Below, piece after piece: positions 4,958-10,103 of a stretch of 27,463 nucleotides of DNA. Both the position numbers and the translations under genes were made by a program. The stretch is from a virus (taxonomy: Duplodnaviria; Heunggongvirae; Uroviricota; Caudoviricetes), in the IMG/VR virus record IMGVR_UViG_2545824714_000008; one strand, given 5' to 3'. The notes beneath the pieces were generated by a model that worked only from the letters and a program-made list of their open reading frames with translations, searched no databases and was not told the origin of the DNA. Every line of letters starts with the position of its first letter. Position 1 is the stretch's first letter.

Positions 4958-5818
4958 TTACACGTGTTTTTCCAATGTGAAAACTACAGCCCCGGCAGGA
5001 GTAATGTCTGTAATGTTGCATTCAAACTCAGCAGACTTATTTGACAACCTGACTTTTCCACCGGGCAAGCGAATTACATCAAAAACATCAAGAGCGCCGT
5101 CGATATCAATTAACCAGCGACCATTACTTATATTCGAAGCAGAACAGTCGACAAGCCAAGAGGCAGCTACACCGTCAACAAAAATCAATTCCCCTGAGTT
5201 AGAAGGAATCATTGAGGGGTCAGGATGCCACGTTCCTGCATCCTTAAGCTCACCAGATTCAAGACGAGATTTTTTAATAGAAAAACCAGATGTGACATCT
5301 TCCCTGTTAGCTCGCATTTGCCCCTTGCCTGTTGCTAACCATTCCAGTGACGTATCGGTATCAAGAGCGCATGTAACAACAACATCACCAGGGAAAAAAT
5401 CTCGCCTTACCCATGTGCTAATTGTGCCAGAGGAAATGCCGAGCAAATCACCGAGCTCCTTTTGCATGGTAAAGCCATACGCATCAAGAATCCTACGCAA
5501 AACGGTTTTACCACCATTCGTCATAATCTCGTCATAAAGCTCTTTGCCTTTTAACTTGCAACTGGCTCGCTCGTGATTTGCATTTGCAAGTTCTCCATTT
5601 ACAAGCCAATTGATATCAGCTCCCGTGTCAAGACAACACCTAACTATGACATTGCCAGGTATTGCATCACGCTGAACCCAGCCGCTAACGCTGTGTTTAG
5701 CGATACCTAGCAGGTCAGCCAAATCCTTTTGCATCTTGACCCCATAGGCTGACATTAAGCGTTCCAATACGCCGTTCGTTGCACTAACACGCCACTGAAC
5801 ATCAAGCTCAGAACTCAT
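4958..5818 (-). CDS. cI: CI-type prophage repressor with a tandemly duplicated N-terminal DNA-binding domain
   Basis: 286 aa. Two similar ~60-aa segments (LERLMSAYGVKMQKDLADLLGIAKHSVSGWVQRDAIPGNVIVRCCLDTGADINWLVNGE and LRRILDAYGFTMQKELGDLLGISSGTISTWVRRDFFPGDVVVTCALDTDTSLEWLATGK) resemble the 186 CI N-terminal domain. Position is next to int and divergent from the lytic operon. Confidence 0.8.
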   Translation of the reverse strand: MSSELDVQWRVSATNGVLERLMSAYGVKMQKDLADLLGIAKHSVSGWVQRDAIPGNVIVRCCLDTGADINWLVNGELANANHERASCKLKGKELYDEIMTNGGKTVLRRILDAYGFTMQKELGDLLGISSGTISTWVRRDFFPGDVVVTCALDTDTSLEWLATGKGQMRANREDVTSGFSIKKSRLESGELKDAGTWHPDPSMIPSNSGELIFVDGVAASWLVDCSASNISNGRWLIDIDGALDVFDVIRLPGGKVRLSNKSAEFECNITDITPAGAVVFTLEKHV

Positions 5819-5939
5819 AAAAACCCCTACAGATAATTTTATGGGTGTTTACAGAAAACTTTTTACGATCTATAGTGGCATTCATCGACCAAGATGCACA
5901 CCACTGCACTACATTTCAAACAACAGGAGATAATGCGAT
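5819..5939. promoter_or_regulatory. Lysis-lysogeny switch region (repressor and early lytic promoters, operators)
   Basis: 121-bp interval between the cI start and the apl/cox-like start, with repeated TACAGA/TTTACAG motifs. Exact promoters not mapped. Confidence 0.5.
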
Positions 5940-6311
5940 ATGTCAGATGCAAAATCAATCTCGACGCACGACTCGCAAAACTCACAAAATCAAACTGTGC
6001 TGCTAGATCCAACACAGTTTGATGCCATCGTTACCGCCATGCTGCCAGCTCTACAGACAATGATTCGCTCCGCTATGTCAGACACGATGACTGTGAAAGA
6101 CTTCGCCGCTACTAGCGGTGTTAGCGAGCGTCTGGTCTGGCAATGGCTCGATGAGGGAGTCCTTCTCAAAGCTCCGACCAAAGACTTTTCCAACAAAGAA
6201 GAAGCTGCTAAACGAAGCCGAACCCTCGTAAACGTAAAAGCATGGCGCGATAAGCTGACTCAACAAGCGATTGATTGTCGCTACATCGACCAGCGCACCG
6301 CTCTTAACTGA
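5940..6311 (+). CDS. Apl/Cox-like excisionase / early regulator (helix-turn-helix); true start may be an internal Met
   Basis: First gene of the early rightward operon. Carries an HTH-like segment (VKDFAATSGVSERLVWQWLDEGVL). The ORF is 123 aa, or about 90 aa from an internal Met. Confidence 0.6.
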   Translation: MSDAKSISTHDSQNSQNQTVLLDPTQFDAIVTAMLPALQTMIRSAMSDTMTVKDFAATSGVSERLVWQWLDEGVLLKAPTKDFSNKEEAAKRSRTLVNVKAWRDKLTQQAIDCRYIDQRTALN

Positions 6312-6343
6312 ATTTGATTATGCAAGTTAGAGGGAATTTAACC

Positions 6344-6853
6344 ATGTTTGATTTTCAGGTTTCCAAACATCCCCACTATGACGAAGCATGCCGCATTTTC
6401 GCACAGCGTCACAATATGGCGAAGCTGGCCGAGCGTGCAGGTATGAACGTTCAAACGTTACGTAACAAGCTCAACCCGGAACAGCCTCACCAGTTCACGC
6501 CGTCTGAATTGTGGCTGCTGACTGACCTGACCGAAGACTCAACCCTCATTGATGGTTTTTTAGCGCAGATTCACTGCCTACCATGCGTGCCGGTTAATGA
6601 GTTGGCTAAAGACAAATTGCAGTCTTATGTCATGCGCGCAATGCGTGAACTCGGCGAACTGGCGAGCGGCGCGGTATCTGATGAACGTCTGACCATTGCC
6701 CGTAAGCACAACATGATTGAAAGCGTTAACTCCGGCATTCGCATGTTGTCATTGTCGGCTCTGGCTCTGCATGCACGTCTGCAGACTAATCCAGCTATGT
6801 CGAGCGTGGTCGATACCATGAGCGGTATTGGCGCATCGTTTGGTCTGATTTGA
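6344..6853 (+). CDS. cII: CII-like lysogeny-establishment regulator (186 CII family)
   Basis: From ATG 6344 (AGAGGGA 8 nt upstream) the product is 169 aa, the length of 186 CII. It follows the apl-like gene. Confidence 0.75.
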   Translation: MFDFQVSKHPHYDEACRIFAQRHNMAKLAERAGMNVQTLRNKLNPEQPHQFTPSELWLLTDLTEDSTLIDGFLAQIHCLPCVPVNELAKDKLQSYVMRAMRELGELASGAVSDERLTIARKHNMIESVNSGIRMLSLSALALHARLQTNPAMSSVVDTMSGIGASFGLI

Positions 6854-6860
6854 GGTGCGT

Positions 6861-7061
6861 ATGCTGAAAAGTGAACCGTCATTCGCATCTCTGCTCGTTA
6901 AGCAAAGCCCCGGCATGCACTACGGCCACGGCTGGATCGCAGGTAAGGACGGCAAGCGCTGGCACCCGAGCCACTCGCAGGCTGATTTACTGGCTGGCCT
7001 CTCTACTCAAAAGCGGGGGGGCTCATGGCTATCGAAGCTGTTTCCGCGACTGTTCCGCTAA
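6861..7061 (+). CDS. Small early-operon protein (position of 186 fil)
   Basis: 66-aa ORF from ATG 6861 with GAGG upstream. Its 3' end overlaps the next ORF, with a G7 tract at 7015..7021. Confidence 0.5.
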   Translation: MLKSEPSFASLLVKQSPGMHYGHGWIAGKDGKRWHPSHSQADLLAGLSTQKRGGSWLSKLFPRLFR

Positions 7062-7363
7062 AAGCGGGTGAACGTCTGGCCGGTCTCAATCATGTTGCCG
7101 AATTGCGCGCGAGATATTGGGGCGATAGCTGGAAAGAGGTTGAACGTTTTGTCGATGATATGCGCGATAAACGTGACCCACAATTTGAAGAAAATAATCG
7201 GGCGCTGGCCGCTATTTTCTTTCTGGCAAAAATACCGGCGGCTCGTCATGAACTCGAATTAAGTGAGCTGACTACTGACGAGAAAAAGGCGCTTATTACA
7301 GCGATGAATCATTTTCGTGCAGTAGTGAGCTTATTTCCCAAACGGCTAACCATGCCGAATTAA
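7025..7363 (+). CDS. Early-operon protein (position of 186 dhr)
   Basis: 112-aa ORF starting immediately after the G7 tract. Confidence 0.55.
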   Translation: MAIEAVSATVPLKAGERLAGLNHVAELRARYWGDSWKEVERFVDDMRDKRDPQFEENNRALAAIFFLAKIPAARHELELSELTTDEKKALITAMNHFRAVVSLFPKRLTMPN

Positions 7364-7430
7364 TCCAAACAGAAATTTAATGGCGTAAACCCGCCGGGCA
7401 TCTTATTGCCCGAAATCAGGAGAGTTAATT

Positions 7431-7658
7431 ATGCGTAATACCGAAATCCGTAGTTTTAACACTGATAGCGATGCGCTGGCCGTATTGCTGACCGATGCAA
7501 AAAAAGAAGAGCGTAAAGACCGCGCGCTCGCTGTTTCCATCCGCCTTGAGGCGCTGGCTATCCATATTACCAGAGAGGGAATGAGCGGCACCGAAGCTGC
7601 CGAACTGCTGCGCCGTGAAGCAACCCGCTTTGAGAATGAATCACAGGAGCTGCACTAA
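7431..7658 (+). CDS. Small hypothetical phage protein
   Basis: 75-aa ORF with GGAG upstream, directly abutting the next gene. Confidence 0.55.
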   Translation: MRNTEIRSFNTDSDALAVLLTDAKKEERKDRALAVSIRLEALAIHITREGMSGTEAAELLRREATRFENESQELH

Positions 7659-7879
7659 TGGCCGACGCAATGGATTTAGCACAACTGCGCGAGCAGGAAG
7701 ACCGCGAACGCCACATCAGCAACGCACGCACCCGTATCGCTGCACCTTCCCGTTTTCTTTGCGAGGAATGTGACGCACCAATCCCGGAAGCTCGCCGCAT
7801 TGCGATTCCGGGCGTGGCTTTTTGCGTAACCTGCCAGCAAATCGCAGAGCTAAAAAACAAACACTATCGGGGGGTATAA
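7658..7879 (+). CDS. TraR/DksA-type C4 zinc-finger protein
   Basis: 73 aa with CEEC...x17...CVTC spacing, immediately upstream of gene A as in P2/186. Confidence 0.75.
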   Translation: MADAMDLAQLREQEDRERHISNARTRIAAPSRFLCEECDAPIPEARRIAIPGVAFCVTCQQIAELKNKHYRGV

Positions 7880-7880
7880 A

Positions 7881-10103
7881 TTGGCTGTTCAATTCGCTTA
7901 TCCGTGGAACGTCCCACGGTCGGCAATCTCCAGCCCATACCTTACTTATGAGCAACAGCATCGCCGCGACCGTATGTTCGCGGCTTTGCTGCATGCAAAA
8001 AAGGGGCTTTCTCTCCAGCCCGACTGCGTGCGGTTAGATGTTTATCGCACTGCTGCGGTGCTGGAACAAAATCAGGGTAGTAAACGAGCCAATGCATTTT
8101 TAATCAGCTTCTGCAAAAAGGCATTGCCGCGTCTTGAACTGGTCGCAAAAAAATACGAATGCGCTGGTATCAACAGCAAGGTATCAACCGCTGTTTTTGG
8201 AAGTCATTTTGATACTCAGCAAATGCAATATCTGTCGTCACGCATGGTTAATATGGTCGCCCGATATAACCGTCTCCCGGACATGTCGCGCGCTGATGTT
8301 GACCTGTTGGCCGCTGATATTGCTAATTTCATTCGTGGTGAACTTGCCAACATTAATGACCACGGATTCGGCGAGCTTAAAACGCTGTACACCTGGTATA
8401 TTCGTGCTGGCTTTATTTCCCTCCAATTCAACGTTATCCCACCACATTGGGAGCGGGTTGAAAAAAAATATGTCGGTGCGGATGAAATCGCACCGGCTAT
8501 CGCCAAAATGTTTAACGATGGGTGGTGGCGCGGTCGTTTGCGCCGTGTAGCAGCTACGTGGCGCGAACACCTGCAAATTGCAGTCGGCAACGTCAGTAAG
8601 AAAAAAAACACTTACGCGAGTAAAAACTGCGTGACTGACTGGCGTGAACAAAAGCGCCGCACTCGTGAATTTCTCAAAGGTCTGGATCTCGAAGACGAAG
8701 ACGGCAACCGTATCAGCCTAATTGAAAAATATGATGGCTCAGTTGCTAACCCTGCGATTCGCCGCTGTGAGCTCATGACCCGCATTCGTGGGTTTGAAAA
8801 CATCTGTAATGAGCTCGGTTATGTCGGTGAGTTTTACACTCTAACCGCGCCGTCAAAATATCACGCCACGACTAAAGCCGGTTACCGTAACAGCAAATGG
8901 AGCGGTGCCAGCCCGGCTGACACGCAAAACTATCTAACCGGTATCTGGGCGCGTATCCGTGCCAAACTACATCGGGAAGATGTCCGTATTTTCGGTATTC
9001 GTGTCGCCGAGCCCCATCACGACGGCACTCCACACTGGCACATGCTGATGTTCATGCTGCCGGAAGATGTTGAATATGTTCGCTCCATCGTCCGTAAATA
9101 CGCATGGAAAGAAGACCGCCACGAACTGAAAAGCGATAAATCCCAAAAAGCACGTTTCCACGCGGAGTCCATTGACCCGGAGAAAGGCAGCGCAACCGGC
9201 TATGTTGCTAAATACATTTCAAAAAATATCGACGGTTATGCTCTCGATGGTGAAACCGATGATGAAAGCGGTGAGCTGCTGAAAGAGACAGCCCCCGCCG
9301 TTTCAGCATGGGCTGCGCGCTGGCACATCCGTCAGTTTCAGTTTATTGGTGGTGCGCCGGTGACGGTTTACCGTGAGTTGCGTCGCCTCGCTGATACCGA
9401 AACCGCGCACGGTCTGAGCGTTGAGTTTGCCGCCGTCCATGATGCCGCCGACGCTGGTGACTGGGCTGGTTATGTTAATGCTCAGGGTGGGCCGTTTGTC
9501 CGTCGCGATGATTTACAGGTGCGCACACTGTATGAACCGCGTACCGAGCTTAATCAGTACGGTGAGGAAACGGTATGTATTAAGGGGGTCTACGATTCCT
9601 CCATAGGTGCAGGAAGCCCGATTTTAACCCGGCTCACTCAGTGGAAGATTGTTCCGAAGCGTGCTGTTGATTTGGCCGTTGACCTTCAGGACGGCAAAGC
9701 CGTCCCTCGGAGTTCTGTCAATAACTGTACGGGAAGCGAAAGCGATCCACCGATACTGGATTTAACAAAACCACTGAGTCGGCGTGAAAGACGAGAATTG
9801 ACCAACCTACTCAGGAAGCAAAAGCCAGCAGCACGGCGAAAATTCATCCACGGAACGGATGAGCAAAACGCAGCTATAGCTAAAACTATCGATGAGATAC
9901 ATCTGACAACCGGCATTAATATCAGCCGGGGCGAAGCCCTGCACCTGATGGCCGGTGGTAAAAGTTGTTTTGATGGTAAATGGCTACGCGGAACGGCCAA
10001 AGGAGAAATATTTTCCGCAGCACCATCGCATGAGGCTAAAGCTCGGAAAATCCTTAATCGTGTTGCGGCGATGGCTGAAGCATCAAAACCAATACATGAG
10101 TAA
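7881..10103 (+). CDS. A: Rolling-circle replication initiation protein (P2 gpA family)
   Basis: 740 aa containing EPHHDGTPHWHMLMF and GYVAKYISKNIDGYALDG, matching P2 A motifs as recalled. TTG start with GGGGGT upstream. Confidence 0.9.
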   Translation: MAVQFAYPWNVPRSAISSPYLTYEQQHRRDRMFAALLHAKKGLSLQPDCVRLDVYRTAAVLEQNQGSKRANAFLISFCKKALPRLELVAKKYECAGINSKVSTAVFGSHFDTQQMQYLSSRMVNMVARYNRLPDMSRADVDLLAADIANFIRGELANINDHGFGELKTLYTWYIRAGFISLQFNVIPPHWERVEKKYVGADEIAPAIAKMFNDGWWRGRLRRVAATWREHLQIAVGNVSKKKNTYASKNCVTDWREQKRRTREFLKGLDLEDEDGNRISLIEKYDGSVANPAIRRCELMTRIRGFENICNELGYVGEFYTLTAPSKYHATTKAGYRNSKWSGASPADTQNYLTGIWARIRAKLHREDVRIFGIRVAEPHHDGTPHWHMLMFMLPEDVEYVRSIVRKYAWKEDRHELKSDKSQKARFHAESIDPEKGSATGYVAKYISKNIDGYALDGETDDESGELLKETAPAVSAWAARWHIRQFQFIGGAPVTVYRELRRLADTETAHGLSVEFAAVHDAADAGDWAGYVNAQGGPFVRRDDLQVRTLYEPRTELNQYGEETVCIKGVYDSSIGAGSPILTRLTQWKIVPKRAVDLAVDLQDGKAVPRSSVNNCTGSESDPPILDLTKPLSRRERRELTNLLRKQKPAARRKFIHGTDEQNAAIAKTIDEIHLTTGINISRGEALHLMAGGKSCFDGKWLRGTAKGEIFSAAPSHEAKARKILNRVAAMAEASKPIHE

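Follow-up and report, generated by a model that had tools for sequence, protein, structure and literature searches.

In phage 186 (NC_001317), the gene order is cI (on the reverse strand), an apl-like gene, cII, fil, a small gene, a terminator region, a DUF2732 gene, a gene for a DksA-like zinc finger, and the A replicase. The small gene is dhr (66 aa, phrog_6069), which begins within the 3' end of fil and overlaps it by 14 nt; Fil itself has 75 residues in 186. According to a note in the phage 186 record, overexpressed Fil may block cell division. In the open-access literature on fil and dhr, fil came up only as a point for fusing reporters.

The window (the whole stretch of viral DNA that was analysed, 27,463 nt) has much the same arrangement: a CI repressor gene on the reverse strand, an ORF at the apl position, CII (CP76), fil, a DUF5347 gene, a DUF2732 gene, a DksA/TraR zinc finger, and the A replicase. 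This arrangement is that of the early lytic (pR) operon in a 186-like (Eganvirus-type) prophage. As in 186, the small downstream gene begins within the 3' end of fil. In contrast to 186, the overlap is 37 nt, Fil has 66 residues, and the gene that follows encodes an unrelated 112-aa protein of the DUF5347 family (phrog_602); the gene that follows fil in 186 is not related to DUF5347.

The earlier note had described two early ORFs in different frames, with a 37-nt overlap and a run of seven Gs just before the second ATG, and both the sequence and the list of ORFs bear out this description. It had offered two explanations: two genes that overlap naturally and occupy the places of fil and dhr in 186, or one gene that is split by a change in the length of the homopolymer. 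We propose that these are very probably two separate genes of the pR operon that overlap by 37 nt, and that the G-run is the Shine-Dalgarno (SD) sequence of the downstream gene, rather than the mark of a broken gene or of a switch. The features of the junction are as follows.

6852..6857, + strand: likely SD sequence of fil, GAGGTG, which overlaps the cII stop codon (duplex with the anti-SD, −6.9 kcal/mol)
6861..7061, + strand: fil, encoding a 66-aa homologue of the phage 186 cell-division inhibitor Fil
7015..7021, + strand: G7 run, putative SD sequence of the DUF5347 gene (duplex with the anti-SD in the top 1% of the window's 20-mers)
7025..7363, + strand: DUF5347 gene, encoding a 112-aa protein that is predicted to be all-helical; it fills the dhr slot of phage 186
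7025..7061, + strand: dual-coding overlap of 37 nt, in which frame 0 holds the C-terminal tail of Fil and frame −1 holds DUF5347 codons 1-12

The CI repressor gene of the window (4958-5818, − strand) has a feature of its own: its product has 286 aa and apparently contains two tandem copies of an N-terminal helix-turn-helix, LERLMSAYGVKMQKDLADLLGI and LRRILDAYGFTMQKELGDLLGI. The 186 CI gene is only 579 nt. In a related contig (L171), the Phage_CI_repr family matches the CI product twice.

Two protein families at the junction

ORF1 (6861-7061, 66 aa) and ORF2 (7025-7363, 112 aa) are both in the list of ORFs; relative to ORF1, the frame of ORF2 is −1. Reading GCGGGGGGGCTCATG from the sequence places the G7 run at 7015-7021 and the ATG at 7025 (positions 7011-7027 read AAGCGGGGGGGCTCATG). 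The run is embedded in the fil codons for Arg52-Gly53-Gly54, and the last 12 codons of fil, along with its stop codon, overlap the DUF5347 gene. An alternative start codon for ORF1 is the GTG at 6855.

Profile and sequence comparisons identify ORF1 as a full-length protein of the Fil family, encoded by a separate and real gene. It matches all of the Pfam family Phage_186_Fil (PF10893, profile positions 1-56 of 56, E = 2.2e-23, 82.1 bits with a cut-off of 25), and it matches phrog_816 ("cell division inhibitor") over its full length (1-66 of 66, E = 3e-36). In a direct comparison with 186 Fil, 43 of 50 residues are identical (86%) over amino acids 1-50 (E = 3e-32), and the C-terminal tails of the two proteins differ. 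The NCBI pipeline PGAP names ORF1 as WP_000920167.1, a Fil family protein.

By the same kind of comparison, ORF2 is a full-length DUF5347 protein and also a separate, real gene. It matches Pfam PF17282 (DUF5347) over profile positions 1-100 of 101 (E = 1.2e-30, 106.2 bits with a cut-off of 25), it matches phrog_602, a family of unknown function, over its full length (E = 3e-52), and PGAP names it as WP_000963463.1 (DUF5347). The AlphaFold2 model of the protein has four helices and is of moderate confidence (pLDDT 71.5). No fold in the PDB matched this model at E ≤ 0.001. Searches with the protein gave no match in NCBIfam, in PADLOC, or among PDB sequences (best E of 0.15).

ORF2 lies directly after fil, overlaps it, and precedes the tR1 region, which is where dhr lies in 186. 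So, the suggestion in the earlier note of two overlapping genes at the positions of fil and dhr stands as to the number of genes, the identity of fil, and the position of the second gene, but that second gene is not Dhr. BLASTP gave no alignment between ORF2 and 186 Dhr at E ≤ 100, and the two belong to different PHROGs (602 and 6069). We also considered P2 gpB, as the gene is annotated in ON470592, and rejected this as well (BLASTP E = 30 over 11 residues). The record in question, ON470592.1, labels the DUF5347 gene at 1726-2064 as "replication protein GpB"; given that E value, the label reflects position only. As the gene in the dhr slot is neither dhr nor P2 B, function should not be transferred to it by position. 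Its position does suggest that the DUF5347 gene may be an accessory early gene, like dhr, and its product might have a role in host takeover.

The DUF5347 gene also occurs on its own. In divergent loci, it directly follows the apl-like gene, with no fil between them, and it has the same ATG, the same MAIEA start, and a site of its own in front of it (GGGAGGG, AAGGAGA, or ACAGGAGA). Because the gene occurs without fil and with its own SD sequence, fil and the DUF5347 gene are independent units, which effectively excludes their being the halves of a split gene.

We also aligned the window's DNA to 186. Homology ends near window position 6999, at about codon 46-50 of fil, and resumes at 7381, so that window 6999-7381 stands against 2091-2385 of the 186 sequence. 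It resumes exactly at the stretch that is annotated as tR1 in 186 (window 7381-7409). This break implies that the tail of fil, with the gene that follows it (dhr in 186, a DUF5347 gene in the window), forms an exchangeable cassette, and from the alignment it does look like one that has been exchanged. Because the genes overlap, each cassette would carry its own Fil C-terminus. A simple scan for canonical terminators across 5700-8000 gave none.

Genes closely related to this one, which belongs to an enterobacterial prophage, are also present in assemblies labelled as Chryseobacterium sp. 18061 and Kocuria sabuli. These occurrences are probably due to contamination of those assemblies.

The G-run as a probable ribosome-binding site

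The run at 7015-7021 is the only run of at least seven Gs or Cs in the 27.5-kb window. From the base composition, about 1.3 G runs of this length or longer are expected per window by chance, so the count alone is not statistically surprising. What explains the run is its position, 4-10 nt 5' of a conserved ATG. The computed energy of its duplex with the 3' tail of the 16S rRNA is −10.1 kcal/mol, and only 1% of the window's 20-mers reach −9 kcal/mol or lower. At the same columns, relatives have AGGGGGA, GGAGGG, or AGGAGG; the corresponding energies are −9.4 kcal/mol for the form with five Gs (G5), −10.0 kcal/mol for GGAGGG, and −10.3 kcal/mol for AGGAGG. A rare G4 form gives −6.5 kcal/mol. The spacing to the ATG is short, at 3 nt from the whole run or 5 nt from the GGGGG core at 7015-7019.

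To describe the junction among relatives, we gathered 34 loci from contigs that represent one genome per species and 80 loci from IMG/VR, and both genes were found in 105 of these. All 105 loci have two ORFs with a frame offset of 2, an overlap of 37 nt, and an ATG start. Most of them (84) have G5, in the form CAGGGGGAATCATG (AGGGGGA), while 12 have G7, 4 have G4, 2 have G6, and 3 divergent loci have GGAGG or AGGAGG. All of these differences are substitutions, without any change in length. The earlier note had suggested a comparison with homologous phages, and this comparison yields two overlapping ORFs and a G7 run, as in the window, in the 12 IMG/VR loci and in 60 complete E. coli genomes among the matches listed. 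(Of those genomes, only L179 had its G7 run read directly.) By the note's own test, this outcome speaks against its second explanation.

Adding the results of a pattern scan and other loci gave 137 full-length ungapped copies of the junction, or 95 unique sequences. In all 95, the ATG of ORF2 is invariant, the stop codon of fil (7059-7061) is TAA or TGA, and positions 7016, 7017, and 7019 are G. At the flanks, 7015 and 7021, most copies have A, and the G7 lineage has G. Judging from these alignments, G7 is a substitution variant of AGGGGGA and not a length variant: A7015G and A7021G convert one to the other and change Fil by Q52R and E54G. An intermediate between G5 and G7 exists in the two loci with G6. 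It is the strength of the SD match at a fixed distance from the ATG that is conserved, not the homopolymer.

Variability by codon position tells the two frames apart. In the part that belongs to fil only, third positions of the fil frame have a variability of 0.87, versus 0.49 and 0.47; in the part that belongs to ORF2 only, third positions of the ORF2 frame have a variability of 0.78, versus 0.38 and 0.22. The phase of this pattern changes at the junction, as expected if selection acts on both frames. Overlapping genes with an internal ribosome-binding site are expected to combine a strong anti-SD match 3-10 nt before a conserved start, a conserved stop codon of the upstream gene, and a switch in periodicity, and all three are found here.

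We infer from the sequence and its conservation that the run acts as an SD sequence and that translation of the DUF5347 gene begins at 7025. Ribosomes would start at this ATG by pairing of the 16S rRNA with the G-run, while ribosomes that are translating fil would read through the SD site and stop 37 nt further on. The last codons of fil would then contain the SD sequence of the DUF5347 gene. No G tract in the region is longer, and G7 would also be an ordinary weak hot spot for +1 or −2 slippage, or for homopolymer miscalls, which join Fil to the DUF5347 protein in a small share of public assemblies.

We also asked if a hairpin between CCUCUCU (6998-7004) and the G-run might sequester the SD site, so that translation would be coupled by unmasking. 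Folding does not favor this hairpin relative to shuffled sequences (z = −0.10), and covariation is no higher than in shuffles (0.041 versus 0.042, with 322 of 500 shuffles as high), so the hairpin is unsupported.

A second G-run of the same style lies downstream in the window: G6 at 7869-7874, 6 nt before a TTG at 7881. This TTG, which abuts the stop codon (7877-7879) of the zinc-finger gene, begins a long, 740-aa form of the A replicase. The start at TTG 7881 is used in ON470592 and in Logan gene calls, while PGAP uses ATG 7974 (709 aa).

Run-length variants and alternative explanations

The earlier note had pointed out that one extra G would fuse the two frames. Inserting a G does give a single open frame of 167 aa, which is a Fil-DUF5347 fusion, and such forms occur, rarely, in public run-level assemblies. 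Searching 5.8 billion proteins with the hypothetical fused protein, we found three fused forms of 167 aa that result from G8 (P0121, P0001, and P0124), one of 166 aa that results from the loss of two Gs from G7, giving G5 (P0122), and one with an added G in the G5 lineage (P0123). P0121 is found on 19-23 contigs and includes an NCBI TPA protein, HAH6657240.1. Altogether, about 25 contigs have G8 and about 10 have the −2 form, versus at least 1,000 contigs that encode the window's exact Fil protein. Runs with G8 include ERR14209884, ERR13763593, SRR29106350, SRR27200979, and ERR15567776. We used this exact protein as a proxy for the G7 allele, which was true in every locus that was read. So, length variants make up at most about 3.5% of the run-level assemblies with this Fil allele. 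Elsewhere, only the normal length was seen. Length-tolerant pattern scans found it in all 12 viral contigs (IMG/VR) and in all 37 metagenome contigs, and each of the 60 complete E. coli genomes among the matches listed (at least 99.2% identity) aligns as one 503-nt piece spanning 503 nt, with no change in length.

We inspected ten of the G8 contigs, which represent several distinct prophage backgrounds. In five of the ten, no indel besides that in the run was seen over 3-6.5 kb. Four others have additional indels, mostly in homopolymers (L173, L174, and L175; L177 has one outside a homopolymer), and L174 has four of them. Other frameshifts occur in the same protein cluster, after FLAK (P0130) or after DEKK (P0125, P0128, P0129, P0131, and P0045). 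The shifts after DEKK map to GAGAAAAAGGCG within ORF2 (window ~7286-7292), and each comes from one Logan contig, in most cases a short one. They look like background homopolymer error in run-level assemblies, which bears on how the G8 variants should be read. We take the G8 and G5 variants to be a mix of homopolymer miscalls and perhaps some real slippage mutants, and real mutants would presumably be near-neutral in a repressed prophage. In practice, when a run-level assembly contains a fused form from G8 or G5, this is best regarded as a probable homopolymer artefact or a sporadic mutant.

Could the run instead be a phase-variable contingency locus, with slippage between G7 and G8 or G5 switching a subpopulation from separate proteins to the fusion and back? 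The presence of the fused forms P0121, P0001, P0124, and P0122 on several prophage backgrounds, and the G8 contigs in which the run is the sole indel, would fit with this. But a long tract is not maintained, as 84 of 105 relatives have G5 and the divergent ones have GGAGG, and no length variants appear in the complete genomes among the matches listed or in the 49 viral and metagenome pattern matches. The low share of variants among contigs with the allele, the further indels in four of the ten G8 contigs, and the extra frameshifts in the cluster also count against it, and the last of these point to sequencing error. Finally, a change in length would not switch ORF2 off, because ORF2 would keep its own SD sequence and ATG. 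We consider a contingency locus to be very unlikely. We give the same small chance to a more limited scenario, in which the two substitutions of the E. coli G7 lineage made a tract that slips appreciably to G8 or G5, so that part of the prophage population encodes the fusion. If this were true, then the fusion would be a heritable and reversible variant of a host-takeover module. A fusion might also be made alongside Fil from the normal sequence, by programmed −1 ribosomal frameshifting or by transcriptional slippage. In the frame of fil, the run reads G_GGG_GGC, which formally is an X_XXY_YYZ heptamer, and no stop codon interrupts the −1 frame between 6986 and the end of ORF2. However, the heptamer (G_GGG_GGC or G_GGG_GGA) is present only in the G7 lineage, and 84 of the 105 loci have G_GGG_GAA. 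The 79 nt that would hold a stimulatory structure (7022-7100) fold no better than shuffles (z = +0.28), and ORF2 has its own conserved SD sequence and ATG and exists without fil. Also, the one value for a G_GG.G_GG.N motif that is quoted in the text of a study in E. coli (PMC4066793) is the lowest of its series, 0.018% −1 frameshifting for G_GG.G_GG.U without a stimulator, and the list in that text of motifs that exceed 0.10% without a stimulator contains no G_GG.G_GG.N. Frameshifting or transcriptional slippage here seems very unlikely, and no evidence supports either programmed frameshifting or phase variation.

This leaves a single ancestral gene that was split by an error in sequencing or assembly or by a recent homopolymer mutation. 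The only point in its favor is the formal one that adding a G gives one open frame. Against it, the same G7 run and two ORFs are in 12 IMG/VR contigs and in the 60 complete E. coli genomes among the matches listed, three of which are 100% identical, and the two halves are different protein families that occur independently. We view a split gene as extremely unlikely. The earlier note's second option, a gene split by a sequencing error or by a slippage-prone switch, is therefore unsupported for the window, and the variants that do exist fit with sporadic mutation or error. Two overlapping genes, with the G-run as the putative SD sequence of the second, remain our preferred reading.

Comparison with related phages

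The overlapping pair of fil and a DUF5347 gene is ordinary, and it is already known and annotated. For annotation of this locus, fil and the DUF5347 gene should be kept separate, with the run taken for a ribosome-binding site rather than for a frameshift error. Beyond correct annotation, the importance of the junction is slight.

The same layout, with the 37-nt overlap and the same positions of starts and stops, is found in Erwinia phage EtG, Salmonella phage PSP3, Escherichia phage vB_EcoM-613R3, and many enterobacterial prophages. RefSeq names these pairs "cell division inhibitor" and "DUF5347 domain-containing protein." Most pairs of this type have AGGGGGA (G5), whereas the window has G7. 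The stretch in question is 99.8% identical to vB_EcoM-613R3 and 100% identical to prophages of three complete E. coli chromosomes (among the matches listed), in which PGAP annotates two genes. Over 6861-7363, the window shares its GGGGGGGC form, with C at 7022, with these three genomes.

A looser parallel is the orf78-B junction of phage P2. There, too, a small early gene overlaps the gene that follows it, and the ribosome-binding site of the latter (GGAGGG) lies within the last codons of the former. Unlike in the window, the overlap in P2 is only 4 nt (ATGA), and its two proteins have no relation to Fil or DUF5347.
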